Numbered from the stretch's first letter, positions 2,231 through 29,329 are shown. The stretch: 64,000 bases of DNA from Desulfarculia bacterium (GCA_963662445.1 OY759590.1:2560249-2624248), one strand, 5' to 3'. Translations and numbers: made by a program. The notes: a model not told the origin generated them from the sequence alone.

Positions 2231-3106
2231 ATGTCCGTAAAAGGTATCATATTGGCTGGCGGGAGCGGGTCTCGCCTTTATCCCATAACCATGGTTACGT
2301 CAAAGCAGTTGCTGCCTGTTTATGACAAGCCCATGGTCTATTATCCTCTGTCCGTGCTCATGCTTGCCGGAATCAGGGATATTCTGATTATTACAACGCC
2401 CAAGGACAGGCTGCGGTTCGCCGACCTTTTGGGCGATGGACAACAGTTGGGGCTCAACTTTTCCTATGCGGAGCAAGCCGTTCCACGGGGGCTGGTTGAC
2501 GCTTTCCTGATTGGCGAGAAATTTGTCGGAAACTCCCGGGTCGCCCTGGCTCTGGGGGACAATATATTCTATGGGGGCAGCTTCAGACCCCGATTGGAAC
2601 GGGCTGCGGGCAAGGAACGGGGCGCAACCATATTCGGTTACCCGGTTGAAGACCCCGTGCGTTATGGTGTTGTCGAGTTTGATGAAAAATTTCGCGTAGT
2701 ATCGCTGGAGGAGAAGCCTGCTTCGCCCAAAAGCAATTTCGCCGTAACCGGACTGTATTTTTACGACAATGAAGTGGTGTCGCTGGCCAAGACGATCAAG
2801 CCATCCGAAAGAGGCGAACTGGAGATAACGGATCTCAACAGGATATATTTACAGAACGGATTGCTGGATGTCGAACTGTTGGGCCGGGGATTTGCCTGGT
2901 TTGACGCCGGAACCCATGAGAGCCTGCTGGACGCCTCTCAATTCGTGGAAACAATAGAAAAGAGGCAAGGCCTGAAGATTGCCTGCCTTGAAGAGATAGC
3001 CTGGAGTTCCGGGTGGATCGATTCCGAACAGGTGTTGCGGCTGGCTGCCACGATGTCTGTAAACGGCTATGGAAAATATCTGAGAAAGATGGTTGGTTCG
3101 CGGTGA
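2231..3106 (+). CDS. rfbA: glucose-1-phosphate thymidylyltransferase
   Basis: N-terminus [35 protein letters not shown], and the full-length 291-aa RmlA-like sequence. Confidence 0.93.
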
Positions 3107-4155
3107 TCGGCGGCAGTATTCTGATTACCGGCGGTGCTGGGTTTATAGGGTCGAATTTCGTCGCCTATTATCTGGATAAGCACCCCCAGGCAACAGTGGT
3201 GAATCTGGACAAATTGACGTATGCCGGGGACATGAAAAACCTGGAGGAACTCCGGGGCGATCCCAGGCACATATTTGTGCAGGGAGATGTCGGCAACAGG
3301 GAACTGGTCGAATTCCTGTTCATCACCCACGACATCAGGGGAGTCATCCATTTCGCCGCCGAGAGCCACGTGGACAATTCCATCGCCGGACCGGAAATTT
3401 TTGTCAGAACCAATGTCAATGGAGTTTTCACTCTGCTGGATGTGGCCAGGCGCTTCTGGATGGAGAAGCCTTTCGCCTGCAAGGCCGGTTATGAAAACTG
3501 CCGTTTTCACAATATCAGCACGGATGAGGTTTACGGTTCTCTGGGACAGCAGGGGTTCTTCACGGAAACTTCACCATATGCTCCTAACAGCCCGTACAGC
3601 GCCACCAAGGCTGCCGGCGACATGCTGGTGAGAAGTTTTCATCACACTTACGGACTGAATGCGGTTATTTCCAACTGTTCCAATAATTACGGACCGAAAC
3701 AGCACGATGAGAAGCTGATTCCTACCGTCATCAGGAGCGCTCTGCAGGGAAGCCCCATACCAATTTACGGAGACGGAAAAAACGTCCGGGACTGGCTCTA
3801 TGTCCTTGATCACTGCCGGGGCATAGATTCCGTCTACCACCATGGCCGGGCGGGGGAGACGTATAACATCGGCGGCCGCAATGAGCGCAGCAACAACGAA
3901 CTGGCCGTGAGCATCTGTCGTTGCTTGGACAGATTAAATCCTCGCCCGGACGGTGGAAGCTATGAAGAGCAGATCACCTACGTGGCGGACCGGCCTGGCC
4001 ACGACCGGCGTTATGCCATCGACGCGGCCAAGATAGAAGGCGAACTGGGCTGGCAGGCTGAAGAGAGCCTGGAAACCGGGATGGAAAAAACCGTCGCCTG
4101 GTATCTGGCCAAGTATAAGGGGCAGGATGCCGGCCTGCGCCAAAGAGACAATTGA
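3103..4155 (+). CDS. rfbB: dTDP-glucose 4,6-dehydratase
   Basis: [21 protein letters not shown] and YSATKAA motifs of RmlB. I chose the GTG at 3103, which overlaps the rfbA stop (GTGA). The 3013 ATG of the ORF track lies inside rfbA. Confidence 0.92.
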
Positions 4156-4217
4156 TCAAGTGTGCAGCCGGAAGGCGGCCCGCGGCTCCGAGCCGCCTTG
4201 CCGGGCTGAGAGATAAT

Positions 4218-4943
4218 ATGCCGCAGGACAACAAGAAAAAGGATTCAGGCCGCAAAATCGCCATCGTCCAGTCGAATTACATCCCCTGGAAAGGTTATTT
4301 CGACATGATCGCCGCCGTGGATGAGTTCATCCTTTACGACGACATGCAATATACGAGGCGCGATTGGCGCAACCGCAACCAGATCAAGACGCCCAAAGGG
4401 CAACAATGGCTTACAGTTCCGGTCAAGGTAAAAGGTAAATATTATCAGACGATCCGCGAAACTGAAATTGATTGCACCAATTGGGCCCAAAAGCACTGGG
4501 CTACGCTTGCACTGAACTACCGCCGTGCCCCTCACTTTAAAGAAATATCCAGTATATTCGAACCATTGTATCTCGATTGCCCGCATATTTACCTGTCTGA
4601 GCTCAACCGGTCATTTATCGAGACGGTGTGCGCCTGTCTGGGTATTACCACGAAAATAAGCAATTCATGGGATTATGACCTGGTCGAGGGCAAGACCGAG
4701 CGGCTGGTCGACCTGTGCACCAAGGCTGGAGGGACGGAATATATCTCCGGCCCGGCGGCCAAGGATTATATCGAGGAGAAGTGTTTTGAGGAAAAAGGGA
4801 TAAAACTGACCTGGTTCGAATATGATGGCTATCCCGAGTATCCCCAATTGTGGGGGGATTTCATCCATGGGGTGACCATCCTGGACCTGCTGTTCAACTG
4901 CGGCCCGGATGCGCCCAGATACATGAAATACGTGCGCCCATGA
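4218..4943 (+). CDS. WbqC-family protein (unknown function, found in glycan clusters)
   Basis: IAIVQSNYIPWKGYFDMI..ILYDDMQYTRRDWRNRNQIKT matches my recollection of the WbqC-like family. The start was taken at the internal ATG 4218. Confidence 0.72.
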   Translation: MPQDNKKKDSGRKIAIVQSNYIPWKGYFDMIAAVDEFILYDDMQYTRRDWRNRNQIKTPKGQQWLTVPVKVKGKYYQTIRETEIDCTNWAQKHWATLALNYRRAPHFKEISSIFEPLYLDCPHIYLSELNRSFIETVCACLGITTKISNSWDYDLVEGKTERLVDLCTKAGGTEYISGPAAKDYIEEKCFEEKGIKLTWFEYDGYPEYPQLWGDFIHGVTILDLLFNCGPDAPRYMKYVRP

Positions 4944-5869
4944 AGCTATCCATTGTCTCAACTCTGTACCAGTCCGCAGCATATGTAGACCGTTTTTATG
5001 AACGGGCCAGTGTGGCCGCCCGACAATTTGCCGCTGAAGACTACGAGATCATTCTGGTGAATGACGGCTCGCCGGACAACAGCCTGGACATGGCCGTAAA
5101 ACTCACCAAAAGAGACAGTCATGTGGCTGTGGTGGACCTTTCCAGGAATTTTGGCCACCATAAGGCCATGATGACCGGTCTCGCCCATGCCCGGGGGGAT
5201 TATCTGTTTCTGATTGACAGTGATCTGGAAGAGGAGCCGGAATGGTTGAGCAGATTCGCGGAGCAGATGGCGCAGGACAAGTGCGATGTCGTGTATGGCG
5301 TGCAGGAACAGCGTAAGGGCGGCTTTAACGAGCGATGGAATGGGCTGGTATTTTATCGTCTGTTCAATGCGTTGACAGGGTTGGATATCCCTGCAAACAT
5401 TGTCACAGCCAGGCTGATGACCCGCCGCTACGTCGATGCTTTGTTGCGCCATGATGAACGCGAGGTTTTCATAGCCGGCCTTTGGCATATAACGGGCTTT
5501 GACCAGCGTTCGCAAGCAGTTCATAAGCATTCCACAAGCGAAACGACCTATACGTTTCGTCGCAAGATGTCTTTGCTTATCAATTCTGTAACCGCATTCA
5601 GCAACGTTCCGCTGATCATTATCTTTTATATCGGCATCACAATACTAACGTTGGCTGGACTTTACACTGCCTATCTAATTACAAATTGGCTTTTTTTCGC
5701 CAAACCACTAAGCGGGTGGACTTCTCTCATGGCATCTATCTGGCTGTTGGGAGGCTTGATCACTTCGTTTATTGGCGTAATAGGCATCTATCTGTCTAGG
5801 ATTTTTTCTGAAACAAAGCGGCGTCCTTACACCATCGTGAGGAAGGTTTATGGCCAAAAAGACAACTGA
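4940..5869 (+). CDS. GT2 polyprenyl-phosphate glycosyltransferase (ArnC/GtrB/DPM1-like)
   Basis: N-terminal GT-A domain (LSIVSTLY..EIILVNDGSPDNS..FLIDSDLEE) plus two C-terminal hydrophobic helices, the ArnC/GtrB architecture. The ATGA overlap with the upstream stop suggests translational coupling. Confidence 0.8.
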   Translation: MKLSIVSTLYQSAAYVDRFYERASVAARQFAAEDYEIILVNDGSPDNSLDMAVKLTKRDSHVAVVDLSRNFGHHKAMMTGLAHARGDYLFLIDSDLEEEPEWLSRFAEQMAQDKCDVVYGVQEQRKGGFNERWNGLVFYRLFNALTGLDIPANIVTARLMTRRYVDALLRHDEREVFIAGLWHITGFDQRSQAVHKHSTSETTYTFRRKMSLLINSVTAFSNVPLIIIFYIGITILTLAGLYTAYLITNWLFFAKPLSGWTSLMASIWLLGGLITSFIGVIGIYLSRIFSETKRRPYTIVRKVYGQKDN

Positions 5870-6488
5870 AATAATAACAGAAGTGGCAGAGTATTATTCT
5901 GCCAAACTTGCCGAGCATGGCCGGACGCCTCGGGGCGTAGACTGGAACGGCGAAGAAAGCCAGAGATTACGTTTTTCTCAACTAACCAAGGTAATTAACG
6001 AGACAAGCGGGTTCTCTCTCAATGACATAGGCTGCGGCTACGGTGCGCTATATGACTATTTGCAAGAGAGGTATTGCGATTTTATTTACAGAGGCTGCGA
6101 TGTTTCTTTTGATATGATTCGTGCGGCTGGAGAACGCTGGGCTGACAGTTCAGGCGTTTTTTTTGCCGTGGCTGCCGAACCTGCGAATTTTGCGGACTAC
6201 GGAATAGCCAGTGGCATTTTTAACGTGAGATTAGGGTATAGCGACGCAGAGTGGCTTGAGTATATGACGGAGATAATTGGTATTATGGACAAAACCAGCA
6301 GAAGGGGATTCGCCTTTAATTGTCTGACATCATATTCTGATGCAGATAAGAAGAAAGATTATCTTTACTATGCCGATCCCTGCGCCATGTTTGACTTCTG
6401 TAAAAAGCATTATTCACGCCAAGTTGCGCTGTTGCACGACTATGGTCTTTATGAGTTTACAATTCTGGTGAGGAAACACTCATGGTAA
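5850..6488 (+). CDS. class I SAM-dependent methyltransferase
   Basis: Motif I-like LNDIGCGYGALYDYL. Overlaps the previous gene by 20 nt. Confidence 0.65.
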   Translation: MAKKTTEIITEVAEYYSAKLAEHGRTPRGVDWNGEESQRLRFSQLTKVINETSGFSLNDIGCGYGALYDYLQERYCDFIYRGCDVSFDMIRAAGERWADSSGVFFAVAAEPANFADYGIASGIFNVRLGYSDAEWLEYMTEIIGIMDKTSRRGFAFNCLTSYSDADKKKDYLYYADPCAMFDFCKKHYSRQVALLHDYGLYEFTILVRKHSW

Positions 6489-7147
6489 ACCAGTTAGTCA
6501 TTTTTGGTGCGGGCGATATCGCCCAACTGGCCCATTACTATTTTACTACTGATTCCGACTATGAAGTTGTTGGTTTTACTGTGGATTCTGCCTACATCAA
6601 GTCGCAGAAGTTTTGCGGACTTCCGATCATACCATTTGAAGAGGTGGCAGAGACTTATCCGCCTGATAATTATACTATATTTGTTGCCCTGAGTTATTCC
6701 AAACTTAATCAAATCCGCAAGCAAAAATACCTTGATTCCAAGGCATTGGGGTATCGCCTTGCCAGTTATGTCAGTTCCCATGCCACGGTTCTTAATGATG
6801 GTAGAGTTGGGGATAACTGCTTTATTCTTGAAGACAACACTGTACAACCATTCGTCACTATCGGCAACAACGTTACTTTGTGGAGCGGTAACCATATAGG
6901 GCATCATTCCACAATAGAAGACCATTGTTTTTTGGCGTCCCATATTGTGGTTTCCGGGGGGGTGGAAATCGGCGAAGCCAGTTTCATTGGTGTTAATGCC
7001 ACACTGCGGGACCATATCAAGGTCGGGGAACGTTGCGTCATCGGCGCAGGAACGTTGATACTCTCGGATGCGGAGCCTGGAAGTGTGTACATTGGACGGG
7101 CTACGGAACGGGCCGAGATATCCAGTGACCGGCTGAAAAGATTGTGA
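6482..7147 (+). CDS. NeuD/PglD-type hexapeptide-repeat sugar acyltransferase
   Basis: N-terminal Rossmann-like LVIFGAGDIAQLAHYY..EVVGF followed by left-handed beta-helix hexapeptide repeats (IGNNVTLWSGNHIGHHSTIEDHCFLASHIVVSGGVEIGE). Confidence 0.8.
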   Translation: MVNQLVIFGAGDIAQLAHYYFTTDSDYEVVGFTVDSAYIKSQKFCGLPIIPFEEVAETYPPDNYTIFVALSYSKLNQIRKQKYLDSKALGYRLASYVSSHATVLNDGRVGDNCFILEDNTVQPFVTIGNNVTLWSGNHIGHHSTIEDHCFLASHIVVSGGVEIGEASFIGVNATLRDHIKVGERCVIGAGTLILSDAEPGSVYIGRATERAEISSDRLKRL

Positions 7148-7158
7148 GGGACTAAGTC

Positions 7159-8070
7159 TTGCATTGGAAGAAACTGGGACTGATCTATTGTCCAGAGCCC
7201 ATTCATCCTAAGCTGATCACGCATGCCGCCAATCCACTGCCGGTTTTGCTTGAAGGAGACGTATACCGTGTCTTTTTTAGTGGGAGAGACGTGGAGAACC
7301 GGTCTTCGGTAGGATTTGTTGATATGGATTTGGTCAAACGTAAGGTTATTTATGTACATGACAGACCCGTATTCACACATGGCGATGAAAACAGTTTTTT
7401 CTCCCATGGCGTTAGCATTGGGAATTGCTATACGGTGAAAGGGACCCATTTTATTTTGTTTATGGCTTGGCAATGCCCGGCGGGCAGGCATTGGCGTGGG
7501 GTAGTCGGCAGATTGGTTCTCCATGACGACTGCTCTATGACCCTAGATGGTGATCGCCCGTTCATGGAGACGGATGAGACCGATCAGGTCAGCATTTCTT
7601 ACCCCTGGGTCATCCAGGATGAAGATGGACTCTATAGAATGTACTATGGTTCTACTGTTTCTTGGGATACGGGCAACGGAGAGATGTTGCATGTGATCAA
7701 TCAGGCGAGTTCGGTTGATGGGAATCAATGGAAACGTGAAGGGCTGGCAGTGCCGTACTGTATTGGTGTGGCTCAGGCATTTTCTCGACCGACTGTTGTT
7801 GGTAATAAGAATAATGGATATCACATGTGGTTTTCCTATAGGAGTGGTGCGGGAACCACATATCGTATTGGTTATGCTTTCAGTTCAGATGGCAATGTTT
7901 GGGACATTGATTTAGAAAAAGTCGGCATTGATGTTTCCCCATCAGGTTGGGATTCCGAGATGATTGAATACCCCTTTGTTATTGATCATAAAGGCCAAAG
8001 ATACATGCTCTATAATGGGAATCATTATGGTAAGACAGGATTCGGGATTGCCGTATTGAATAATGACTAA
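7159..8070 (+). CDS. predicted five-bladed beta-propeller protein (GH32/43/130-like fold), function unknown
   Basis: 303-aa ORF with repeated W/Y-rich strand motifs (YRVFFSGRD, YRMYYGST, YHMWFSYRS, YMLYNGNHY). TTG start. The family assignment is from memory only. Confidence 0.45.
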   Translation: MHWKKLGLIYCPEPIHPKLITHAANPLPVLLEGDVYRVFFSGRDVENRSSVGFVDMDLVKRKVIYVHDRPVFTHGDENSFFSHGVSIGNCYTVKGTHFILFMAWQCPAGRHWRGVVGRLVLHDDCSMTLDGDRPFMETDETDQVSISYPWVIQDEDGLYRMYYGSTVSWDTGNGEMLHVINQASSVDGNQWKREGLAVPYCIGVAQAFSRPTVVGNKNNGYHMWFSYRSGAGTTYRIGYAFSSDGNVWDIDLEKVGIDVSPSGWDSEMIEYPFVIDHKGQRYMLYNGNHYGKTGFGIAVLNND

Positions 8071-8265
8071 TTTCCTGGAACAACACACTACTGAACTGAG
8101 TATACTCAACATAATTTGATCATTCAGTCTGGGGAAAAATGCTGATCGCGTCATCACGTAGCCATTGAATGATGTTGACCTCTTTCACTACTCAGTGCTG
8201 TAGGTGACGATGTGTTGTTAAAAAAATCAAAAATTAGTGCGTTCAATATTGAGGAGAATTTGTCG

Positions 8266-8636
8266 ATGAACAACCGATTGCTGGATCATTTATATTTCCT
8301 TTTTACGATAAGCCTAACTTCATATGGCCTTTCAATTATAAAATGGCGTATTGCCAAAGTGGGCGTTTTACCACAGGAGATGATACCCAAACTACGTTTC
8401 CTGTTGCAGATGTTTCTATATCCGCTTGTATTAGTCCGGCTATATCGCGGCCTTTTTGGCTGGCTTGGCCTGGCTGGCGGCCATGACAAAATTTGATCTT
8501 AGCTACGGCTATCCGTTTATGGGTTTGAATTTCGTGGCAGTGCTTTTACTCATCGGCATTTTTCTTGGAGAGTCCATTACCCTGACTAAGGTGGCAGTTG
8601 GTAAATCTTTGTTTAGAAATACCGTATTGGAGTAAT
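8266..8636 (+). pseudogene. frameshifted small 4-TM EamA/ArnE-ArnF-like flippase subunit
   Basis: Frame 1 (MNNRLLDHLYFLFTISLTSYGLSIIKWRIAKVG..) parallels the downstream paralogue up to about 8431-8437. Homology then continues in another frame (SGYIAAFLAGLAWLAAMTKFDLSYGYPFMGLNFVAVLLL..) to the TAA at 8634-8636. Confidence 0.6.
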
Positions 8637-8644
8637 ATCAAATC

Positions 8645-9019
8645 ATGTCGCGTTTTATTGATTATCTCTATATTTTTTCTACAGTGGGTTTTACAGCTTA
8701 CGGGCAAATAGTCATTAAGTGGCGTATCGTCAAATTCGGCCCAATGCCACCGGACTTGCTGGAAAAGGTAAAATTCCTGATATTACTTATCGTTGATCCC
8801 GTGATCTTTTCCGGTTTTGCGGCTGCATTTCTGGCTTCCCTCGCGTGGATGGCCGCCATGACCAAATTTGAACTTAGCCATGCGTATCCTTTCATGAGCC
8901 TGAATTTCGTTATTGTCCTGCTTTTGAGTGGGTGGCTTCTGAAAGAACCATTGTCGATACCCCGTATAGCGGGCGTGGGGTTGATTGTGCTGGGAACTGT
9001 GGTGGCAGCCCGTGGCTGA
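8645..9019 (+). CDS. small 4-TM EamA/ArnE-ArnF-like flippase subunit
   Basis: 124 aa with four hydrophobic segments. It is a paralogue of 8266-8636. It lies downstream of an ArnC-like GT2 and upstream of GT-C candidates. Confidence 0.62.
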   Translation: MSRFIDYLYIFSTVGFTAYGQIVIKWRIVKFGPMPPDLLEKVKFLILLIVDPVIFSGFAAAFLASLAWMAAMTKFELSHAYPFMSLNFVIVLLLSGWLLKEPLSIPRIAGVGLIVLGTVVAARG

Positions 9020-10343
9020 ATATTATCTGTCTACGGAGGAATACAGGCAGATTTCAGCGAAACCGACCAATAGATATCTTGGTAGATATTTGCCACTTTT
9101 AATTCTGATTTTGGCAACTGCCATATTCTGGGGACCGGTAAAATATAAATTGATCGTGCTCATGAAAGTGCCTTTTGTCGACTATAAACAACATATTGAT
9201 ATTGCACTAAAGTTTGCTGAATGTGGAGAAATAAAGATACCATACTTCCTCTTTCATGTCATTACCGCAGGCATTCATTGGCTAACAGGCTTGGAGATTC
9301 GCTTGTCGGCCTATCTGTCTGATATGATGGCCATCATTTTGACCGCAGTTATTATGTTTCATTTTATTACTTCTGAGATTCCATCAGAGCACCTTTTTAA
9401 AGGCAGGCTGGTCGCTATTCCCATGACTTTCTTCGCTTTACTTTTTGCCCCTATTGCGTTCAACGGCTTTATGTCGAGCGCGCCTCTTGGCTCATGGTTG
9501 AGATATTTGTCATTTTACACCGGTTATTTTCATAGTGCCAATATATATCACAACCCGACTTTGTTGATGTTAAAACCAATCGCATTGTTATTATTCTGGA
9601 AATATGCTGCCATTATCAGTAAGTTTTATGCTCCGGACACACGACAGTTTAGTTTGCGTTCTGGCTTGGTAATGGTCTTGCTAATTATCTTTAACGCATT
9701 AGCTAAGCCTAATCTGTTAATCTGCTTTCTGCCAACTGTAACTATGACAATTCTCTATTTTTTTGTGATGGCTTTAAAATGTCGAGGAAATTATGCGTCT
9801 TCATTTTTCCTGTCAAGAATTAAATTCATAATATTATACGCATTTGGACCAACATTTATCGTTTTGTTAATTCAATACGCTTTCATGTTTCTAAATATAT
9901 TTGATTTGGATATAAAAGATGTTAGCCTAAAATTTGCTCCATTTGCTGTACTTGCTAACAACTTCACGTTAATATCCTTTGGGGCCAATTTTACTCTATC
10001 TGTTGCCTTTTTGATGTCTGTATATTTACTATTTCGTATGAAATTTGTTCGAAATATTTACACAATATTGGCGACTGTTCTCACTGTTGTAGGATTACTA
10101 TATGTCATACTATTTGCGGATTATATTAACCATAAGCTATCCAACGCTGGAAATCTATTTTGGAGTCTTCAGATCACACTTTTTATCACCGTCGCTGTTA
10201 CTATGAAATTTATGACTCATAATATGGTCAACTTTCACCAGCTGTCACCCCGAGATAGAACCCTTACCTTGATATCATTGACTATTTTGTCCATTCATAT
10301 TTTTTCCGGACTGTATTGGTATATTTCACTTCTTCACATTTAG
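8985..10343 (+). CDS. polytopic membrane protein, candidate GT-C glycosyltransferase or polymerase
   Basis: 452-aa, very hydrophobic, AT-rich ORF with at least 10 predicted helices by eye. No diagnostic motif was recognised. The start is uncertain (35-nt overlap with the upstream gene). Confidence 0.4.
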   Translation: MCWELWWQPVAEYYLSTEEYRQISAKPTNRYLGRYLPLLILILATAIFWGPVKYKLIVLMKVPFVDYKQHIDIALKFAECGEIKIPYFLFHVITAGIHWLTGLEIRLSAYLSDMMAIILTAVIMFHFITSEIPSEHLFKGRLVAIPMTFFALLFAPIAFNGFMSSAPLGSWLRYLSFYTGYFHSANIYHNPTLLMLKPIALLLFWKYAAIISKFYAPDTRQFSLRSGLVMVLLIIFNALAKPNLLICFLPTVTMTILYFFVMALKCRGNYASSFFLSRIKFIILYAFGPTFIVLLIQYAFMFLNIFDLDIKDVSLKFAPFAVLANNFTLISFGANFTLSVAFLMSVYLLFRMKFVRNIYTILATVLTVVGLLYVILFADYINHKLSNAGNLFWSLQITLFITVAVTMKFMTHNMVNFHQLSPRDRTLTLISLTILSIHIFSGLYWYISLLHI

Positions 10344-10357
10344 GGTTAATATACTCT

Positions 10358-11893
10358 ATGACACAATCAGCACTGCCCTCATTAAGGAATTACTGCCGGA
10401 ACTTAATATCCATGTTGGGATCGATTTCTCGCGGAATCGAGTCGGCCATGCTTGCTTTTGCCGCAGTTGTTTGTGCTTATCTGTTTGTATTTGTAATAAA
10501 TGATATTTCAATATGGGACTATTCACCATTCGAAAGCGATGCCATTTCTTATCTACTTCAAATTCGCTCTGCGGCGCATTATGGATTAGCCTCTGGTGCT
10601 TACGGAATCCAGGAATTTGCGGCATGGTTTTCACCTTCACCATTTGGAGTTCATGGCCCTCAATTTCCCTTGTCCTATGGCACCATTTTGGCGCCGTTCT
10701 CGTGGACAGATGCAAATCCATTGTTGCTGAATCATATTCTCTTTGGCCTTGCTCTATTTTATTTTTTAACCCGCTATAATGCCGGTAATTTAGATAATCT
10801 TCTATTTACCATATTTGCTGTTACATACTGGCCTATAAGCCTGATGCTGTCCATATGCATGCAGGAAGCTTTTTTAGGTTCTTTGGCCTTGGTTAGTTGT
10901 GGATTTTTGTACAAAAAAGATACAAGTAGACGTGGTTTCTGCTTTTCAATGGTTTGCTCAATATTTTCTGGCATTACCCGTCCGCTATACGCTTTCTATT
11001 TAGTAGCTGTGACGCTTCCTGGACCAGTGAAAACCTGGAAACGGGCAATTATCTTATTGGTCGGCATCGGGTGCAGTCTTGTTTTGTCTATGTTAGTTTT
11101 TTGGATGCTTTCTGCCTCGCCAGATTCTCCTTTTGCGACAGGACCTTCTCAAGAGAGAATCAGTCCAGTTATAGGTGATTTTATTCAGAGTAAAATAACC
11201 AATGGAGGCCAAAATCTTCTTGAGAATGTAAAAAGGTCTTGGATATTATTGGGATCATATACTGTTGAGTCGCATCTCATTTTTGTTTCTGTCATTTTGG
11301 TAGTTTTCCTAATTTGTTTTTCTGTGCCTAATCCATTACAAAGTGATGAGTTTCCATTGCTCATTATATTCTTATGGGCAATTATTATAAATATGATATT
11401 CTATAGAGTTCAAGGCTACATATTCTTCAGAATGATAGGTCCTGTGGTATTATTTTTATCGCCTTTTATATTAAGAAAGCGTATAGTAATTATCTCTCTA
11501 ATCATCATCAATTTTATATATCTTCCGGCGGCAGACGATTTCGTCAAGAATTATAGAGCACGTTCTTTTGTTATAGATTCAAACCATACCAATTTAAGAG
11601 GGATCAGAGAAATACTGTCACAGTTATCATTTGATCCTTTAGGAGATCGCTGGGATAATTCGATAGCAATTATAGATTCTCCAGAATTACTGCGCTATTT
11701 GCCCAGTTTACCGGTAGGATTTGGCTTTCATGTCTTTCGCAAGTTCAAAAAATCATACCAGCCAAAATGTCGCTACATCCTTGCAAAAAGAAAAGTAGTG
11801 ATAGAAGTATTGTCAGATGATAAAATACACAGTATAGCTGATGGTTATGTGCTCTACGACTTAAGAAAACTGGAACCACATCATGCGCGATGA
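10358..11893 (+). CDS. polytopic membrane protein, candidate GT-C (ArnT/PMT-like) glycosyltransferase
   Basis: About 511 aa. The first loop after TM1 carries an acidic motif (WDYSPFESDAISY) reminiscent of the GT-C catalytic loop. It has many TM segments and a soluble C-terminal tail. Confidence 0.45.
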   Translation: MTQSALPSLRNYCRNLISMLGSISRGIESAMLAFAAVVCAYLFVFVINDISIWDYSPFESDAISYLLQIRSAAHYGLASGAYGIQEFAAWFSPSPFGVHGPQFPLSYGTILAPFSWTDANPLLLNHILFGLALFYFLTRYNAGNLDNLLFTIFAVTYWPISLMLSICMQEAFLGSLALVSCGFLYKKDTSRRGFCFSMVCSIFSGITRPLYAFYLVAVTLPGPVKTWKRAIILLVGIGCSLVLSMLVFWMLSASPDSPFATGPSQERISPVIGDFIQSKITNGGQNLLENVKRSWILLGSYTVESHLIFVSVILVVFLICFSVPNPLQSDEFPLLIIFLWAIIINMIFYRVQGYIFFRMIGPVVLFLSPFILRKRIVIISLIIINFIYLPAADDFVKNYRARSFVIDSNHTNLRGIREILSQLSFDPLGDRWDNSIAIIDSPELLRYLPSLPVGFGFHVFRKFKKSYQPKCRYILAKRKVVIEVLSDDKIHSIADGYVLYDLRKLEPHHAR

Positions 11894-12149
11894 AAAATTA
11901 CCAATACAAATATGATTCAGAAAATAGAGTAGGTGTGTAAGGTGGTATGGGCAACGCTTAAGCGATTTATTCAGCGGAATTTAAAGAAAGATACCTAGTG
12001 AGGCATAGGGAGGCACGTAGATTCTACGTGCAGGCTGCTCCTCGTTTTTATAAAGGGGCAGGAGTGAGAATCCGCTGAATCTGATGATTATTTTTGTGGG
12101 CGCCCGGAAGTTTATGGAAACGCTATGGGATGTTTTCCTGGATAGACCG

Positions 12150-12480
12150 GCTCGGTTATGGCTGATGCACGGAAATCAGGATTTCAATGGAAGGAAAAGG
12201 GACGATTGGGCACGTCACAATCGAACGGCTCTGGTTGTCCCTGAAGTGTGAATGCCTCTAACTGCATGCCTTGGAGACTTGCTACCAGGCCAGGAAAGGC
12301 ATCGGAGACTGGCTTGATTACTACAACCAGAGCCGGCCCCACTCCAGTCTGGACGGCATGACCCGGATGAGGCATACTGGGGCCTGTCTGAGATGCGGAG
12401 AACTGAAGCGGCGGCATGAAAACAACCCAAGCCATCCACCTTAAGAAAGCCGCCATTATGTCCAAACAATGGGGACCACC
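12150..12480 (+). mobile_element. IS3-family transposase (OrfB) 3' remnant
   Basis: Translates as ..EIRISMEGKGTIGHVTIERLWLSLKCECL*LHALETCYQARKGIGDWLDYYNQSRPHSSLDGMT, then a frameshift, then ..HLKKAAIMSKQWGPPL. This is the conserved integrase C-terminus, with one in-frame TAA and one missing C. No 5' part and no inverted repeats were identified. Confidence 0.75.
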
Positions 12481-12630
12481 TCTTTGTGGCGCGCAGGCAA
12501 GGGGGCTTTTCAGGTCTGGCCAACTTCTGGAGTTTAGGGCAAAAAGGTCTTAACGTGATAGAATCAGGGAAACAATTCTGTCCCTCAAAACAAGGCAGGT
12601 AGGCCATTGCGCGGAGCAAGGTTAAAAAAA

Positions 12631-13770
12631 ATGAACGAATTCGTCCCTTTCAACAAACCATATATCGCAGGCAAGGAGCTGTATTACATTGCTCAGGCCG
12701 TTATCAGCAACAGCCGCATATCCGGTGACGGACCCTTCACAAACCTGTGCCAGAAATGGCTGGAAGACAATCTGAACTGCCGGAAGGTTCTGCTGACTCA
12801 TTCCTGTACGGCCGCGCTGGAGATGAGCGCCTTGCTCTGCGGAATCGGTCCCGGTGACGAAGTCATCATGCCTTCGTTCACCTTTGTCTCCACGGCCAAT
12901 GCCTTTGTTCTGCGCGGCGCGGTTCCGGTGTTTGTGGATATCCGTGAGGACGACCTGAACATTGATGAGAACCTGGCGGCCGACGCCGTTACCCCGAGGA
13001 CAAAAGCCATTGTGCCGGTGCATTATGCGGGTATTCCGTGTGATATGGAGGCTATCGTCAGCCTGGCCCGGAGCCGGGGATTGCGAGTCATCGAGGATGC
13101 GGCTCAGGGGCTGCTTTCAAAATACCAGGAACAGTATCTGGGAACGATCGGCGATCTGGGGTGTCTGAGCTTCCACGAAACAAAGAACATAATCAGCGGA
13201 GAAGGCGGGGCCCTGCTGATCAATGACCCGGAACTGCGGGAGAGAGCCGAAATCATCTGGGAGAAGGGCACCAACCGGAAACGGTTCTTCCGCGGCGAGG
13301 TGGACAAGTATACCTGGGTGGATGTGGGCTCATCGTATCTGCCCAGCGATATCATTGCGGCCTTTTTGTTCGCCCAACTGGAGATGGCTGAGACCATAAT
13401 ATCCGCCAGACGCAACATTTTTCGGCGCTATCTGGATGGGCTGGGGGGCCTTGAAGCGAAAGGCTGCATCAGGCTGCCGTTTATCGGCCAGAATGGAACC
13501 GGCAATGGGCATATAATGTATATCCTGACGGAGTCACTTGCGGCCCGCACCAGACTGATCGAGCACCTGAACAACCGCGACATCAAATCGGTATTCCATT
13601 ATGTCCCGCTGCATTCATCGCCCATGGGGGAGAAATGCTGCCGCACTTATGGACCAATGAAAGTGACAGACAGTATCAGCGACCGCCTGCTTCGTTTGCC
13701 CATGTTCTATGAAATGTCGCACGATGATGTTGACCGGGTTGTTCAGGCTTTATGTGATTTTTATGAATAG
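12631..13770 (+). CDS. wecE: dTDP-4-amino-4,6-dideoxygalactose (dTDP-4-keto-6-deoxyglucose) transaminase
   Basis: Near-colinear with my recollection of E. coli WecE/RffA: FNKPY..GKEL.Y, LLTHSCTAALEMSALL, GDEVIMPSFTFVSTANAFVLRGA, FHETKN, EKGTNR..FFRGEVDKYTWVDVGSSYL, FHYVPLH, RLLRLP. Confidence 0.9.
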   Translation: MNEFVPFNKPYIAGKELYYIAQAVISNSRISGDGPFTNLCQKWLEDNLNCRKVLLTHSCTAALEMSALLCGIGPGDEVIMPSFTFVSTANAFVLRGAVPVFVDIREDDLNIDENLAADAVTPRTKAIVPVHYAGIPCDMEAIVSLARSRGLRVIEDAAQGLLSKYQEQYLGTIGDLGCLSFHETKNIISGEGGALLINDPELRERAEIIWEKGTNRKRFFRGEVDKYTWVDVGSSYLPSDIIAAFLFAQLEMAETIISARRNIFRRYLDGLGGLEAKGCIRLPFIGQNGTGNGHIMYILTESLAARTRLIEHLNNRDIKSVFHYVPLHSSPMGEKCCRTYGPMKVTDSISDRLLRLPMFYEMSHDDVDRVVQALCDFYE

Positions 13771-13874
13771 GAATTCATGACGGGTTCCATAGGTATTCTG
13801 TCTGTTGAATAATCACGGCTGTTGCGGTTCTACTGAAGTGACTGCCCGGATTAGACCGGTTAAGGATAATATTG

Positions 13875-15998
13875 ATGACTAAGCCCAATATTTCAACCGC
13901 CAGGTGGCTGGCTCTGCAAATATTTCTGTTCGCATTATACTTCGCTCTGTCATGCCTTTACTATCACTTCTATTTGACCAATGAATACACGCCTGGTGGT
14001 GATGGAGGCAGGATATATACCTACTTGAAGTACATGGAGAAGGTTCCCGAGATCATCCCTTTCTGGCAGGCTCATAAATATCATGGTTATCCTCTCCTGG
14101 CCGATCCGGAAAATCACATGCTGTGGAGTCTTTTTCTTGATACGGAATCACCTTATTTCAATATTCAACTTAATATGGTTTTTTTCACACTGACAGCGGT
14201 GTTCGCCTTCTGCTGCCGCGGTATCGGCAGAATACTTGGTTTTTCCGAAGTGGCTGCTTTCGCTGTTGGCCTTGTTTCAATCAGTTGTGTGCCTATGGTG
14301 AGAGTGTTCATGCATGGGTCGTTGTCCTCACTGCAGCCTACGGTTTTTATTTATGTTTCCATATTCATGATATTGTATTTTGTACAGAGCCAAAATACCA
14401 AGTCTGTCTTACTGTTATTGATCTCATCTCTGCTTATGGCGGCAGCCTTAGTCACCACAGGATATTACTTTCCTTTGGCGGCTTTTCCGCCATTGGTTAT
14501 AGGACTGTCCTGTCTGTATCTGAGCAAAGAAACAAGGGCTAGGCAGATCGCTGCCCGCATATTTGTAGTCTTGTCCATCATCTCGGTTTTGACTCTTTTG
14601 TTTTCTCTTCCTTTGGTTTTGCCGGTTATTGACGGAGTTGTTTCGTCCCGGATATTTTTCTCGGATTCTCCCGTCATTAATGTCACTGATGCCCCATTAT
14701 ATAATTTTTATCTTGGACTTTGGCCTTTCATATTGCTGGCTGTTATCTATGCCAGGGGAACTCTCAGGCGCTGTGCAACATTGTTTGCGATTTTGGGAAG
14801 TGTCAATTTAATTCTTATCTTATTGGAAATTGCCGGTTGTGCCCTGTTTTTTGACGTTTGGTCTCAGATACCAATTCTGCGGAATATACGCTGGCAACAT
14901 CCGTTTACCGAGTTGGCCAGCATCGGAGCTGCGTTCTGCCTGGGTATATATCTTGATGCAAGTAGGACAAAGGAGGCTATAGAACCACCACAGACAAAAT
15001 TTGTTCTGATTGGGGGATTTTGTCTACTGATGGCAGTTCTGGCCTTTGGGCAATATCAAAATGGGGATGAATACCATCAGATTGTTATCAGTCTTCTTTT
15101 CATTTTGGTAGCCCTGGTCGGTAGAAGATTTAGAATTGCTTTGTCTCTATCTCTGGCAATATTGCTGCTTATGATCGTTAATTTTGAAAAGTGTCCTCTG
15201 GGAAATCAGCTTTATAAGGCCACCAATTCGCAAAAAATCCAGACATATGTTGGACCATACAGATGGATGGGGGGGTACGGATACGACGAATTTACCCCCA
15301 GTTTCGCTTATGGCAAGTATTCAATGGTTTTTATTAAAGAATACAGAAACATACTGTCGGTAATGACCGGTGTTGAGATTATGGCTCAGCGCCCGCATTG
15401 GGTAGGACTTTATGAAGAAATTGACGAGACCAAGGTAAACAAGAGAGTGGAACGCCTTATGGCTATAGATAATCCAGTCAGAAAGAAAGCGAAACGTAAA
15501 GACAGGAAGAATTACAAAATAAGGCCTTTCAGGGTGTATGACCGGTGGGTCGTTCTCGACGACGAGAACGCTTTAAAGATGATGACGGATGGAACTTTTT
15601 CGGTCAATGGTCCAATAATTTTGGCTCAGGAGCCACCCTTTGAAAAAGACGCCAATAAAAGGAAGTTAAATTGGGATGCTAAATTAACCGGAAAGACCGC
15701 AGATACATTGACTTTGCATGTAAAAACGGACAGGAACAGTATCTTATTTATACCAGAGATATATCATCGAGATTGGACCGCGGAGGTGGATGGCGAAAGG
15801 GCTCCTGTAATCAAGGCCTACGCTTCAATGCGCGCAGTACCAATCGGATCGGGGGAACATACGATTGTCCTGCGGTTTGTTTACCGGCCATTTTACTGGG
15901 GCTTGGCCATTTCGGGATTCATGTTATTTTTCTCTTTCTTATTACTGCTTGTTTTTCGAGATAAGGTACATCGCTACTTGAGTTTTCAACCTCTGTAG
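13875..15998 (+). CDS. YfhO-family (GT-C) membrane glycosyltransferase
   Basis: About 707 aa with many N-terminal TM helices, a soluble domain, and a C-terminal block DWTAEVDGERAPVIKAYASMRAVPIGSGEHTIVLRFVYRPFYWGLAISG followed by a final TM. This matches the YfhO C-terminus as I remember it. Confidence 0.62.
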   Translation: MTKPNISTARWLALQIFLFALYFALSCLYYHFYLTNEYTPGGDGGRIYTYLKYMEKVPEIIPFWQAHKYHGYPLLADPENHMLWSLFLDTESPYFNIQLNMVFFTLTAVFAFCCRGIGRILGFSEVAAFAVGLVSISCVPMVRVFMHGSLSSLQPTVFIYVSIFMILYFVQSQNTKSVLLLLISSLLMAAALVTTGYYFPLAAFPPLVIGLSCLYLSKETRARQIAARIFVVLSIISVLTLLFSLPLVLPVIDGVVSSRIFFSDSPVINVTDAPLYNFYLGLWPFILLAVIYARGTLRRCATLFAILGSVNLILILLEIAGCALFFDVWSQIPILRNIRWQHPFTELASIGAAFCLGIYLDASRTKEAIEPPQTKFVLIGGFCLLMAVLAFGQYQNGDEYHQIVISLLFILVALVGRRFRIALSLSLAILLLMIVNFEKCPLGNQLYKATNSQKIQTYVGPYRWMGGYGYDEFTPSFAYGKYSMVFIKEYRNILSVMTGVEIMAQRPHWVGLYEEIDETKVNKRVERLMAIDNPVRKKAKRKDRKNYKIRPFRVYDRWVVLDDENALKMMTDGTFSVNGPIILAQEPPFEKDANKRKLNWDAKLTGKTADTLTLHVKTDRNSILFIPEIYHRDWTAEVDGERAPVIKAYASMRAVPIGSGEHTIVLRFVYRPFYWGLAISGFMLFFSFLLLLVFRDKVHRYLSFQPL

Positions 15999-16115
15999 GC
16001 AGGCTGGTCTGGCCGTCAGTCTAAGCAGGGCATTGCATGGGATTCTATTCATTAGGGGCTTGCTTCGGATACTCAAAACTGATATATCGTTCCCAGAGTT
16101 ACGGAGGCAGAAACG

Positions 16116-17303: not shown

Positions 17304-17308
17304 AGGTA

Positions 17309-24035: not shown

Positions 24036-24099
24036 TGAAAGATAGACAAAGACAAGGCCTTTAGCATAGCAAATTCAATAATGCAAATTGGTGAGGAGT

Positions 24100-26410: not shown

Positions 26411-26468
26411 TATCTATGGGATATGAAGGTCAAAAAGTATAGTTAGAAAAATTATAAAGGCTATCATA

Positions 26469-27251: not shown

Positions 27252-27317
27252 AATAGATAAAGTGAATATAAAATCGTCTCAAAACAATAAAGTTGACGGT
27301 TTAGCCGTGAGCGTAAA

Positions 27318-29321: not shown

Positions 29322-29329
29322 CATTCAGG

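Follow-up and report, generated by a model that had tools for sequence, protein, structure and literature searches.

The window analysed here, a 64,000-nucleotide stretch from a Desulfarculia bacterium, carries between positions 2231 and 15998 genes for a dTDP-linked amino sugar together with genes for a probable lipid-dependent glycosylation system, and this raises the question of whether both sets act on one sugar and where that sugar would be placed. A first-pass annotation had proposed an Arn-like pathway rebuilt at this locus. Profile searches recovered every gene it had named at or near its assigned position, and all cassette genes lie on the + strand. The list was incomplete, a WbqC-like protein, a 212-residue methyltransferase and a 303-residue beta-propeller protein having been overlooked. 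As judged from sequence, the locus represents a single copy of a gene cassette that is widespread and uncharacterised, and a local rebuilding is contradicted by the presence of orthologues of its 309-residue glycosyltransferase (GT2), 67-77% identical, in at least 473 species genomes. The most likely function of the cassette is to attach an N-acetylated 4-amino-4,6-dideoxy sugar to a lipid of the membrane, to flip it across the inner membrane and to transfer it to a surface polysaccharide by means of several membrane enzymes. We assign a probability of about 0.68 to the reading that it is a Gtr/Arn-type glycosylation system of three components, acting outside the cytoplasm and supplied with its donor sugar by the dTDP-glucose pathway.

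Genes for the dTDP-linked sugar

The first two genes encode RfbA/RmlA (2231..3106, +), the glucose-1-phosphate thymidylyltransferase that forms dTDP-glucose, and RfbB/RmlB (3103..4155, +), the dTDP-glucose 4,6-dehydratase; together they would supply dTDP-4-keto-6-deoxyglucose. RfbA scored 479 bits against TIGR01207 (cut-off 360.65) and matched Pfam NTP_transferase with an E-value of 6e-72, and RfbB scored 459.7 bits against TIGR01181 (cut-off 365.1), its inferred GTG start overlapping the RfbA stop as GTGA. Start and stop codons also overlap along the stretch from rfbA to the gene of the 525-residue protein described below, which suggests a single operon. Amination at C4 would be performed by a WecE-type dTDP-4-keto-6-deoxyglucose 4-aminotransferase (12631..13770, +) that reached 575 bits with NF008687 (cut-off 375), and whose orthologues share a median identity of 58%. 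With the ArnB model this enzyme scored only 214 bits, short of the cut-off (631).

The next step is assigned to a left-handed beta-helix (LbH) N-acetyltransferase of the NeuD/PglB/VioB family (6482..7147, +), which matched TIGR03570 (181 bits, cut-off 160.8) as well as Pfam PglD_N and Hexapep. Among its best-scoring solved relatives over most of the length are Neisseria PglB (4M98), PerB (4EA7) and PglD (3BSS), all of which N-acetylate the C4 amine of nucleotide sugars, and we propose that the 4-amine of the dTDP-amino sugar is its substrate. The product would be dTDP-Fuc4NAc, or dTDP-Qui4NAc if the configuration at C4 is gluco; we infer both this configuration and the actual donor sugar. Pfam and NCBIfam searches found no isomerase among the cassette proteins of the window.

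The three overlooked genes lie within the same run. The WbqC-like protein (PF08889; 4218..4943, +) was recognised by Pfam with an E-value of 3.7e-85, belongs to a family described in the literature as uncharacterised, and its family profile found no match in the PDB. The 212-residue protein (5850..6488, +) is a class I SAM-dependent methyltransferase with weak matches to Methyltransf_25, Methyltransf_12 and Methyltransf_11, below the curated Pfam cut-offs, and its family profile recovered generic N- and C-methyltransferases only from the PDB; we regard it as a conserved putative tailoring enzyme. The cytoplasmic 303-residue protein (7159..8070, +) had no Pfam or NCBIfam match, and a profile built from 17 orthologues related it to five-bladed beta-propellers, namely GH117 (4AK5, E 2e-10), the GH130 phosphorylases 9FJ8 and 7FIP (E 4e-8 and 1e-7) and GH43. 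Since these three proteins fit none of the assigned steps, the true product may have a more complex structure than Fuc4NAc, and they may take part in its further tailoring.

Proposed transfer to the lipid carrier and flipping

The gene at 4940..5869 (+) encodes a polyprenyl-phosphate glycosyltransferase of the GtrB/ArnC type, in which a GT2 domain is followed by two C-terminal transmembrane helices (residues 217-235 and 263-281). It matched the structures of GtrB (5EKP, E 4e-42) and ArnC (9HWJ, 9BHC and 8VXH, E 1e-34 to 1e-31) from end to end, and in NCBIfam it matched PgfS best (174 bits) and also ArnC (130 bits); these two alignments spanned the whole protein and scored below the equivalog cut-offs. 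We propose undecaprenyl phosphate as its acceptor, which would be glycosylated on the inner membrane face to give Und-P-(4-acylamino-4,6-dideoxyhexose); a dTDP-linked donor is suggested by synteny.

The pair of small ArnE/ArnF-like proteins described previously is reduced to one intact transporter (8645..9019, +). This member of the EamA superfamily (Pfam EamA, 34 bits, cut-off 28) had ArnF (E 2.5e-11) and ArnE (E 1.5e-7) as best NCBIfam matches, both below cut-off, and is proposed as candidate flippase for the lipid-linked sugar. The second copy (8266..8635, +) is a degraded paralogue that switches frame near position 8430 and lacks the last transmembrane helix of the intact one, being either a pseudogene or a sequencing error.

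Polytopic membrane proteins

Up to three different GT-C-type transferases would then attach the sugar in the periplasm. All three had been put forward before as GT-C candidates, and the fold is now predicted for one of them, a protein of 452 residues (9012..10343, +). A word search with it returned only the protein itself, phmmer yielded 480 remote homologues, and the family has no Pfam model. Its AlphaFold2 model (pLDDT 88.8, pTM 0.90) was compared with the PDB by Foldseek, and the top 14 matches were all GT-C enzymes (STT3/PglB/AglB, AftA and ALG9) with probabilities of 0.96-1.0 and TMq values of 0.40-0.48; E-values were modest (6e-3 to 0.14) and TM-scores stayed below 0.5. No Wzy, WaaL or SEDS protein occurred among the 50 matches listed. 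GT-C enzymes were thus the sole credible matches, and the model predicts a GT-C fold, and neither a Wzy nor a WaaL fold. The family has two motifs, DYxxH, which begins the first loop helix after TM1, and YHNPT; D66 and H70 are invariant or nearly so, and Y188-T192 are invariant in a closer subset.

The second protein (525 aa; 10316..11893, +) is a GT-C candidate by motif and context. Itself alone was recovered from a database of 5.8 billion proteins, and its two remote homologues, on contigs L085 (E 5e-19) and L087, both adjoin a homologue of the 452-residue protein, a GT2 and WecE. D54, P57, D61 and Y65 are invariant in this family immediately after TM1.

The third candidate (708 aa; 13872..15998, +) has 13 hydrophobic segments, arranged as about 12 N-terminal transmembrane helices, then a domain in the periplasm and one last helix. 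Its designation as a YfhO-type protein holds in that it exceeds the Pfam YfhO cut-off (35 against 28.5 bits), and is limited by the match covering only the last 80 or so of 835 model positions (755-835). This stretch aligns with the end of the YfhO protein encoded in full length on contig L102, and matches to PgfM1 and PgfM2 are likewise confined to the C-terminus.

Conservation of the cassette

We surveyed 83 loci, drawn from many phyla, for genes lying no more than 10 kb from the orthologous GT2. Of these loci, 78 had the WbqC-like protein (about 70% identity), 70 a WecE-type aminotransferase, 68 the methyltransferase, 63 the acetyltransferase, 59 the propeller protein and 36 an ArnF-like transporter, in a fixed gene order. 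A GtrA-family protein (PF04138) substitutes for the transporter in about 18 other loci, and in nine a sugar N-formyltransferase (PF00551 + PF18216) occupies the acetyltransferase slot. Given that the same set recurs around orthologous GT2 genes in so many phyla, the clustering is far above chance. This conserved synteny supports the core of the earlier proposal, namely a thymidine-linked 4-amino-4,6-dideoxyhexose that would be lipid-linked, flippase-dependent and transferred by GT-C enzymes.

The membrane partners are highly variable, with one to three polytopic proteins per locus: at least one (≥380 aa, ≥7 transmembrane segments) lies within 8 kb of the GT2 in 72 of 81 loci, and two or more in 32. 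Relatives of the 452-residue protein recur beside GT2, a WecD-like or LbH acetyltransferase, WecE, RfbA/B and ArnF. On the compact contigs of this family WecE, the acetyltransferase and RfbA/B are the only sugar-nucleotide genes, and these contigs also carry genes for an ArnC-like GT2, for ArnF-like proteins and for YfhO or PMT_2 proteins of full length.

Between the 525-residue protein gene and wecE lies a C-terminal remnant of an IS3-family transposase (about 12199..12400, +; NF033516 transpos_IS3, E 3e-10, model positions 317-364 of 369) with an in-frame stop, which cuts wecE and the YfhO-like gene off from the other cassette genes. This scar had raised a doubt about whether WecE and the GT2 function together, which the survey removes, as the two lie within 10 kb of each other in most loci. 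The window's own copy could be partly inactive, because one ArnF-like gene is broken and the IS3 scar is present.

Downstream of the cassette follow ABC transporter genes of the Wzm/Wzt type and genes for very large glycosyltransferases with several domains, and wzt genes are found near it in other genomes too. The sugar would most likely be used to side-branch or cap the polysaccharide made by this adjacent ABC-transporter-dependent locus.

Alternative explanations

The association could be coincidental, with an ordinary Gtr system using a common UDP-sugar (Glc, GlcNAc or Gal) and dTDP-Fuc4NAc serving a cytoplasmic Leloir enzyme of main-chain synthesis. To our knowledge, every characterised GtrB/ArnC/PgfS-type enzyme uses a UDP- or GDP-sugar; many Leloir glycosyltransferases lie downstream in the window, including a multi-GT protein of 1845 residues and a GT2 of 987, and RfbA/B are near the GT2 in only 14-15 of the 83 loci. 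We nevertheless consider coincidence unlikely in view of the recurrence of WecE and an N-acyltransferase with this GT2 clade. Moreover, short contigs such as L085, L103 and L105 carry only GT2, acetyltransferase, WecE, flippase and membrane proteins without any Leloir glycosyltransferase, and no UDP-sugar-modifying enzyme is a conserved cassette member.

Slightly less probable is a protein acceptor, the lipid-linked amino sugar being used for Pgf/YfhO-type O-glycosylation of surface or S-layer proteins. It would fit with PgfS, a component of the Streptococcus mutans protein-glycosylation machinery, as top NCBIfam match of the GT2, with the PgfM1 and PgfM2 matches of the YfhO-like protein, and with the oligosaccharyltransferases PglB, AglB and STT3 among the Foldseek matches. 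Yet the Pgf scores are far below the equivalog cut-offs, those to PgfM span about 80 residues only, the cluster holds no candidate acceptor protein, and its surroundings are a Wzm/Wzt polysaccharide export locus.

A true Arn analogue, placing the amino sugar on lipid A or core phosphates to lower negative charge and confer resistance to cationic peptides, appears improbable to us. The parts correspond one for one (aminotransferase, N-acyl- or N-formyltransferase, ArnC-like GT2, ArnF-like transporter), and the formyltransferase of nine loci suits the parallel with ArnA that had been drawn. Against this reading, no protein from 2231 to 18007 showed an ArnD-type deacylase domain, so that the sugar would stay N-acylated and neutral, and no match to the ArnT/PMT_2 families was obtained for any of the three membrane proteins. 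These proteins are, besides, hypervariable and often multiple, as are serotype-specific enzymes and unlike a conserved lipid A enzyme. Gtr- or wxc-type side-branching is favoured over Arn because no deacylase or ArnT-family protein was detected, the sugar is probably neutral and the cassette lies within a polysaccharide locus of the ABC-transporter type.

Finally, it is very improbable that the polytopic proteins act as Wzy polymerases, as WaaL ligases or as acyltransferases, leaving the GT2 without a dedicated periplasmic partner here: the 452- and 525-residue proteins are near-orphans encoded at low GC (35-38%), as is typical of wzy genes, and the single-sequence model of the latter was unusable (pLDDT 41), but the confident 452-residue model points to GT-C, conserved acidic motifs come right after TM1 in the two families, as they do in the partner families that other loci carry, and the ABC-transporter pathway used by the adjacent polysaccharide locus is not known to require Wzy.

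Comparison with known systems

The Firmicutes systems CsbB/GtcA/YfhO and PgfS/PgfM1/PgfM2 likewise combine a GtrB-type GT2 with YfhO-type GT-C enzymes, and L102 carries its full-length YfhO protein beside a related cassette. They act in Gram-positive envelopes with UDP-HexNAc donors, and the window's protein has only the C-terminal domain in common with YfhO. The Fuc4NAc branch of the enterobacterial common antigen (RffH/RffG/WecE/WecD, Enterobacterales) takes the same route to dTDP-4-amino-4,6-dideoxyhexose. There, Fuc4NAc is added in the cytoplasm to a lipid-linked trisaccharide by the Leloir enzyme WecF, whereas for the window's sugar we predict carriage as a single residue on Und-P and a periplasmic transfer; the window's acetyltransferase is of the LbH type and not WecD, although a WecD-like GNAT is used in the related cassettes of L085, L102, L103 and L105.

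The Arn pathway (ArnA-B-C-D-E/F-T, L-Ara4N on lipid A) has the order of chemistry proposed here: a 4-keto sugar nucleotide, 4-amination, N-acylation, ArnC-type transfer to Und-P, ArnE/F-type flipping and a GT-C enzyme. It differs in using a UDP-pentose instead of a dTDP-linked, hexose-derived 6-deoxy sugar; the cassette lacks the ArnA decarboxylase, ArnD deformylase and an ArnT-family (GT83/PMT_2) protein, misses all Arn equivalog cut-offs, and probably has a polysaccharide as acceptor.

The Gtr scheme of O-antigen glucosylation (GtrA/GtrB/GtrC) combines a synthase for the polyprenyl-phosphate sugar and a small flippase with a GT-C enzyme that is serotype-specific and works in the periplasm once polymerisation has taken place; among its recent relatives is the pentofuranose system of Citrobacter youngae, founder of GT136 (PMC11127046). 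The GtrB-like GT2 and the hypervariable membrane partners agree with it. By contrast, the predicted donor is a dTDP-linked 4-acylamino-4,6-dideoxyhexose where those systems use UDP-Glc, UDP-Gal or PRPP, the window's flippase is ArnF/EamA-like, GtrA taking its place in other loci, and each cassette has two or three different GT-C candidates.

By analogy, the cassette resembles O-antigen side-branching by Xanthomonas wxcK-O more than the Arn modification of lipid A. Region 3 of the X. campestris pv. campestris wxc cluster (wxcK-L-M-N-O) also concerns a dTDP-derived N-acetylated amino-6-deoxyhexose, and its parts run parallel: aminotransferase WxcK, acetyltransferase WxcM, GT2 WxcL (likened by description), small membrane protein WxcN and hypervariable membrane protein WxcO. 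In Xanthomonas the amino group is at position 3 (Fuc3NAc), and synthesis runs via the 3,4-ketoisomerase domain of WxcM, whereas the window's aminotransferase is a WecE equivalog (4-amino), an isomerase is absent, and WbqC, methyltransferase and propeller are additional. Mutants in wxcK and wxcN lose the FucNAc branches of the rhamnan O-antigen (PMC4878081), and WxcO is hypervariable while WxcL is conserved (PMC13133917). The Xanthomonas system acts on an O-antigen of the ABC-transporter type, as the cassette probably would on the polysaccharide of its adjacent locus, and the cassette is a variant on a known scheme that involves no new principle.

Gene content of the locus

Profile searches of the proteins encoded between 2231 and 15998, where every substantial gene lies on the + strand, bore out the gene list of the first-pass annotation with three corrections. 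RfbA (2231-3106; TIGR01207, 479 bits against a cut-off of 361) is followed by RfbB (TIGR01181, 460 bits, cut-off 365), whose start, probably the GTG at 3103, overlaps the stop codon of RfbA. Downstream are a WbqC-family protein (4218-4943; PF08889, E 4e-85), a GT2 glycosyltransferase of 309 aa (4940-5869; Pfam Glycos_transf_2), a class I methyltransferase of 212 aa (5850-6488), a hexapeptide acetyltransferase of the NeuD/PglB/VioB family (6482-7147; TIGR03570, 181.2 bits, cut-off 160.8) and a 303-aa protein (7159-8070) to which neither Pfam nor NCBIfam assigned a family. The list had omitted the WbqC protein, the methyltransferase and the 303-aa protein.

The pair of small ArnE/ArnF-like membrane proteins was recovered as two genes, but the first (8266-8635) is frameshifted near 8430, with the last helix truncated or missing, and is either a decaying tandem duplicate or the product of a sequencing error. 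The second (8645-9019) scores above the Pfam EamA cut-off. It is followed by a 452-aa polytopic membrane protein (9012-10343, with the 452-aa ORF running from 8985) and a 525-aa one (10316-11893). The overlapping starts and stops from rfbA through the 525-aa gene suggest one operon. Further downstream we found the remnant of an IS3 transposase (about 12199-12400; E 3e-10, model positions 317-364 of 369), WecE (12631-13770; NF008687, 575.3 bits, cut-off 375) and a 708-aa membrane protein (13872-15998). For the last of these a YfhO-type assignment had been proposed; its score on the Pfam YfhO model exceeds the gathering threshold (35 versus 28.5 bits), yet only the last 80 or so positions of the model are matched. 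With one ArnF paralogue broken and an IS3 scar present, the cassette copy in the window may be partly decayed.

The genes of the 452-aa and 525-aa proteins have a GC content of 35-38%, and the conserved cassette genes one of 44-55%. The mosaic GC across 2000-33000, set against the flanks, fits a horizontally assembled, serotype-specific island. Values elsewhere are 61-65% in the CRISPR flank (1-2000), about 51-60% in the downstream flank (34-64 kb) and 34-43% in the giant glycosyltransferase. No DNA similar to the locus was found in E. coli genomes. Immediately upstream of the glycan locus, at 15-1860, lies a CRISPR array in which the 32-nt repeat GTCGCGCCCCTCGCGGGCGCGTGGATTGAAAC recurs at least 28 times at intervals of 65-69 nt; the array accounts for pseudo-ORFs of repetitive sequence (FQSTRPRGAR, SIHAPARGAT) among the listed ORFs.

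The GT2, the sugar-nucleotide enzymes and the candidate flippase

The GT2 has an N-terminal GT-A domain and two transmembrane (TM) segments at its C-terminus, as in the GtrB/ArnC type. The solved GtrB structure 5EKP aligned to it over the full length (E 4e-42), and the ArnC structures 9HWJ, 9BHC and 8VXH aligned end to end (E 1e-34 to 1e-31). Its scores on the PgfS model (174 bits) and on the ArnC model (130 bits, cut-off 529) were both under the equivalog cut-offs. The protein is therefore a member of the GtrB/ArnC family and not ArnC itself.

The NF008687 match of WecE spans residues 13-386, and the related subfamily model TIGR02379 gave 548 bits; on the ArnB model the same aminotransferase scored 214 bits (cut-off 631). 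The acetyltransferase carries a PglD_N domain followed by a Hexapep (LbH) domain, and its best solved relatives matching over most of the length include Neisseria PglB, PerB and PglD, which transfer an acetyl group to the C4 amine in nucleotide-linked 4-amino-4,6-dideoxyhexoses. Profile searches of the locus proteins revealed no 3,4-ketoisomerase, RmlC or RmlD. From these assignments, the straightforward expected product would be dTDP-4-acetamido-4,6-dideoxyhexose, and the WecE assignment suggests the galacto configuration. As for the candidate flippase, the best NCBIfam matches of the 8645-9019 protein were ArnF (44 bits, cut-off 99) and ArnE (32 bits, cut-off 92), which place it putatively among the small membrane proteins (GtrA, ArnE/F-SMR/EamA or MATE) expected in this role.

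Conservation and spread of the cassette

Relatives of the GT2 number in the thousands; among the best 120, lengths range from 306 to 318 aa, with exactly 309 aa in most, and identities from 72 to 77%. In a scan of one genome per species, the GT2 was encoded in at least 473 genomes, with carriers including Pseudomonas, Xanthomonas, Collimonas, Nitrosomonas, Geobacter, Desulfobulbaceae and Nitrospira as well as Acidobacteria, Verrucomicrobia, Flavobacteriaceae and cyanobacteria. The cassette as such ranges over Proteobacteria, Cyanobacteria, Nitrospira, Acidobacteria, Verrucomicrobia and Bacteroidetes. Being so widespread, it is not a local rebuild of a pathway, as had been supposed.

We counted homologues of the window proteins located up to 10 kb from the GT2 in 83 fetched loci. 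WbqC was present in 78 of them (median identity 70%), a WecE-type aminotransferase in 70 (58%), the methyltransferase in 68 (63%), the acetyltransferase in 63 (70%), the 303-aa protein in 59 (59%) and the ArnF-like protein in 36 (69%), the last being replaced by a GtrA-family protein (PF04138) in about 18 loci; RfbA and RfbB were found in 14 and 15 loci (63% and 48%), respectively. The usual order is polytopic membrane protein, WbqC, GT2, methyltransferase, acetyltransferase, 303-aa protein, flippase slot (the ArnF-like protein, or GtrA plus a second methyltransferase), polytopic membrane protein and WecE. The window follows it, with RfbA and RfbB upstream, two membrane proteins after the flippase and the IS3 scar directly before wecE. 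That scar had raised doubts as to whether WecE works together with the GT2; the conserved order makes WecE a core member of the cassette, and in the family the scar is no argument against co-function.

A sugar N-formyltransferase (PF00551 plus PF18216) fills the acetyltransferase slot in nine loci, so that the conserved requirement would be N-acylation of the amino sugar before lipid transfer, as in Arn, and a 4-formamido variant of the lipid-linked sugar is predicted for these loci (L010, L013 at about 11550-12330, L016, L033, L040, L043, L060, L061 and L078). The 303-aa protein is usually replaced in them as well.

Contigs encoding homologues of the 452-aa protein were fetched independently of the GT2, a 14-sequence subset alignment being used for the metagenome scan, and they repeatedly hold the same functional set. 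L085 encodes a 493-aa membrane protein, 452-like and 525-like proteins, an ArnC-like GT2 (205 bits on ArnC), a GNAT protein and WecE (56% identity), the best NCBIfam matches of the GNAT protein being WecD models (dTDP-4-amino-4,6-dideoxy-D-galactose acyltransferase), below cut-off. L086 carries the acetyltransferase (67%), the 303-aa protein (52%), ArnF (56%) and a 452-like protein, and L087 a GT2, WecE, ArnF, 525-like and 452-like proteins and a TPR-containing membrane protein of 795 aa. L102 combines a full-length YfhO (324 bits) with a GT2, a 452-like protein, two small 4-TM proteins, a GNAT protein, WecE, RfbA and RfbB. The sets of L103 (GT2, GNAT, WecE, 452-like) and L105 (452-like, GT2, GNAT, ArnF, WecE, RfbA) are shorter. 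The metagenomic contig L099 encodes RfbB, RfbA, two 452-like proteins, a GT2, a GNAT protein and a PMT_2 protein; at 7554-10953 the two 452-aa paralogues are interleaved with RfbB and RfbA, and with two further paralogous membrane proteins of about 676 aa and the PMT_2 protein this one cassette holds up to five polytopic candidates. Two GT2 clades, only 27% identical to each other, thus keep the same partners (WecE, an N-acetyltransferase, a small flippase and GT-C proteins), which is our strongest argument that the substrate of the GT2 is the WecE-derived sugar.

Literature searches returned nothing on the cassette or on lipid-linked Fuc4NAc or Qui4NAc, and nothing relevant when Fuc4NAc, Qui4NAc or viosamine was combined with GT-C, GtrB or ArnC. 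For a plasmid-borne copy, the RefSeq annotation gives generic names only. The precomputed Pfam family of an upstream 600-aa protein in the Pseudomonas locus L003 is DUF6077, on which literature searches also returned nothing.

The polytopic membrane proteins

At least one protein of 380 aa or more with at least seven hydrophobic segments was encoded up to 8 kb from the GT2 in 72 of 81 loci, and two or more in 32. These membrane partners belong to many families, mutually unrelated by sequence and without a Pfam model; a Pfam search of six of the families gave no match. In most of them the first TM helix is immediately followed by two conserved acidic residues (DE in three clusters, DD in two). 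When the three membrane proteins of the window, their families and the partner clusters were compared by hhalign, no significant relation emerged except for a common YfhO-like C-terminus and a weak link between partner clusters M9 and M12. Among the homologues of the 452-aa protein, P0135 (901 aa), P0159, P0176 and P0193 bear extra domains, in some cases fused long soluble C-terminal repeats and in others N-terminal extracytoplasmic domains, which may be acceptor-binding modules.

The 452-aa and 525-aa proteins are near-orphans, each retrieving only itself in a word-index search of 5.8 billion clustered sequences. Exhaustive phmmer searches nevertheless gave 480 remote homologues of the 452-aa protein, about 400 aa long and 25-30% identical, with a DYxxH motif in which D66 is nearly invariant and H70 invariant; Y-H-N-P-T at 188-192 is invariant in the closer subset of 14 sequences. 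A Pfam search with the family alignment yielded two isolated weak matches only, neither related to glycosylation. In an AlphaFold2 model built from a 60-sequence alignment (pLDDT 88.8, pTM 0.90), D66 and H70 are placed where the first helix after TM1 begins. The top 14 matches of this model in a Foldseek search of the PDB were all GT-C enzymes (STT3, PglB, AglB, AftA, ALG9; probability 0.96-1.0, TM-score 0.40-0.48, E 6e-3 to 0.14), and below them came unrelated transporters with a probability under 0.3. The model thus lends moderate-to-good support to a GT-C fold whose first extracytoplasmic loop bears an acidic motif, as the first-pass annotation had proposed. The competing identity as a Wzy/WaaL-type polymerase or ligase, which that annotation had named as a refutation of its proposal, was rejected for this protein, no WaaL, Wzy or SEDS protein being among the 50 Foldseek matches listed.

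For the 525-aa protein, two homologues were detectable, in L085 (E 5e-19) and L087, and D54, P57, D61 and Y65, just after TM1, are invariant in all three sequences. Its single-sequence structure model reached a pLDDT of 41, and it is by motif that the protein is a GT-C candidate. The YfhO-like protein aligns to only positions 755-835 of the 835 in PF09586, although its whole-protein score is above gathering, and it has the C-terminal domain alone in common with full-length YfhO; with about 12 TM helices, then a periplasmic domain and one last TM helix, its architecture is compatible with that of the YfhO family.

WbqC, the methyltransferase and the propeller-related protein

WbqC has been called uncharacterised in the literature, and a search of the PDB with its family profile gave no match. 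For the methyltransferase, the only resemblance is to generic small-molecule methyltransferases. The family profile of the 303-aa protein matched the five-bladed propellers of GH117, GH130 and GH43 (E 2e-10 to 2e-4). This propeller-related cytoplasmic protein is conserved in the window, in L003 (12208-13131) and in 58 other loci, and a cassette for sugar-nucleotide and lipid-carrier chemistry is an odd place for a glycoside hydrolase/phosphorylase fold. All three proteins are missing from minimal versions of the cassette (Cupriavidus L001, L085, L103 and L105), and they probably tailor the sugar and are not part of the transfer machinery.

Probable acceptor and proposed mechanism

Directly after the locus lies a gene for an SDR resembling UDP-sulfoquinovose synthase (16116-17303; NF041015, 406 bits, below the cut-off of 575), and at 25109-26410 one for a sulfotransferase-like protein (Pfam Sulfotransfer_3, a weak 26.3 bits, just under the cut-off of 27); as predicted, these two would hint at a sulfonated or sulfated surface glycan. 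Within 18498-32266 are genes for a protein of 1845 aa, which combines three GT4-type domains with one GT2 domain, and for a GT2 of 987 aa, as well as for an epimerase, an ABC-2 permease and an ABC ATPase of 667 aa. Judged by these predicted products, the region is an ABC-transporter-dependent polysaccharide locus, whose polymer is the probable acceptor. In five other genomes, Wzt genes with a Wzt_C domain were found near the cassette. Given the ABC-transporter locus and the hypervariable, often multiple GT-C partners, the amino sugar is most likely transferred in the periplasm to a surface polysaccharide that has already been polymerised, and each GT-C protein would act at its own site or its own step.

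Alternatively, protein may receive the lipid-linked sugar, as in Pgf/YfhO-type glycosylation. An Arn-like change in the charge of lipid A is disfavoured: domain searches of the locus proteins detected no deacylase domain, so the sugar probably stays neutral.

Decoration of a surface polysaccharide, with its function as predicted here, is in line with the periplasmic glycosylation that had been proposed from the sequence, an interpretation now supported by comparative genomics and one structure model. In its most far-reaching form, to which we give a probability of roughly 0.45, a little short of even, the cassette would be a widespread periplasmic glycan-decoration system in which the GT2 is the first polyprenyl-phosphate glycosyltransferase shown to use a dTDP-sugar, unannotated GT-C families (for example the one with DYxxH...YHNPT) found new CAZy families, and WbqC and the GH130/GH117-like propeller tailor the amino sugar by new chemistry. 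If this is true, a widespread branch of the three-component scheme delivers N-acylated 4-amino-4,6-dideoxyhexoses, the orphan WbqC family gains a working context, several unannotated GT-C families are added, and a GtrB/ArnC-type enzyme with a thymidine-nucleotide donor becomes a testable case.

Comparison with known systems

Periplasmic three-component glycosylation diversifies O-antigens and cell walls and gives rise to phage resistance and serotype conversion. To our knowledge, the characterised donors are glucose, galactose, GlcNAc, Ara4N, GalN or pentofuranoses. The locus had been read as mirroring the Arn pathway part for part. Among the proteins encoded at 2231-18007, no domains of ArnA (UDP-GlcA oxidative decarboxylase plus formyltransferase) or of the ArnD deformylase were found, all cut-offs of the ArnB, ArnC and ArnE/F equivalogs were missed, and no membrane protein matched PMT_2/ArnT. 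With the sugar-nucleotide genes being those of the dTDP-glucose pathway, membership in the Arn pathway was ruled out, and the locus is most aptly called a side-branching system of the Gtr/wxc type.

Three-component glycosylation is a firmly established principle that continues to expand (PMC11127046). The closest precedent is wxc region 3 of Xanthomonas campestris. There, the rhamnan O-antigen is left without its FucNAc side branches when either wxcK, the aminotransferase gene, or wxcN, which encodes a small membrane protein, is mutated (PMC4878081). Of two further products of the region, the GT2 WxcL is conserved and WxcO hypervariable, with identity between strains falling as low as 26% (PMC13133917). 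Since no isomerase domain was detected in the locus, the cassette is at most a sister of the wxcK-O system, whose WxcM is a 3,4-ketoisomerase-acetyltransferase. Xanthomonas genetics already pointed the same way, so that a Gtr-like scheme with a dTDP-derived amino-deoxyhexose is not a new idea and the system extends an established principle. What appears to be new is the 4-amino (WecE) version as a highly conserved and very widespread cassette, together with its three extra enzymes and its unannotated GT-C families.
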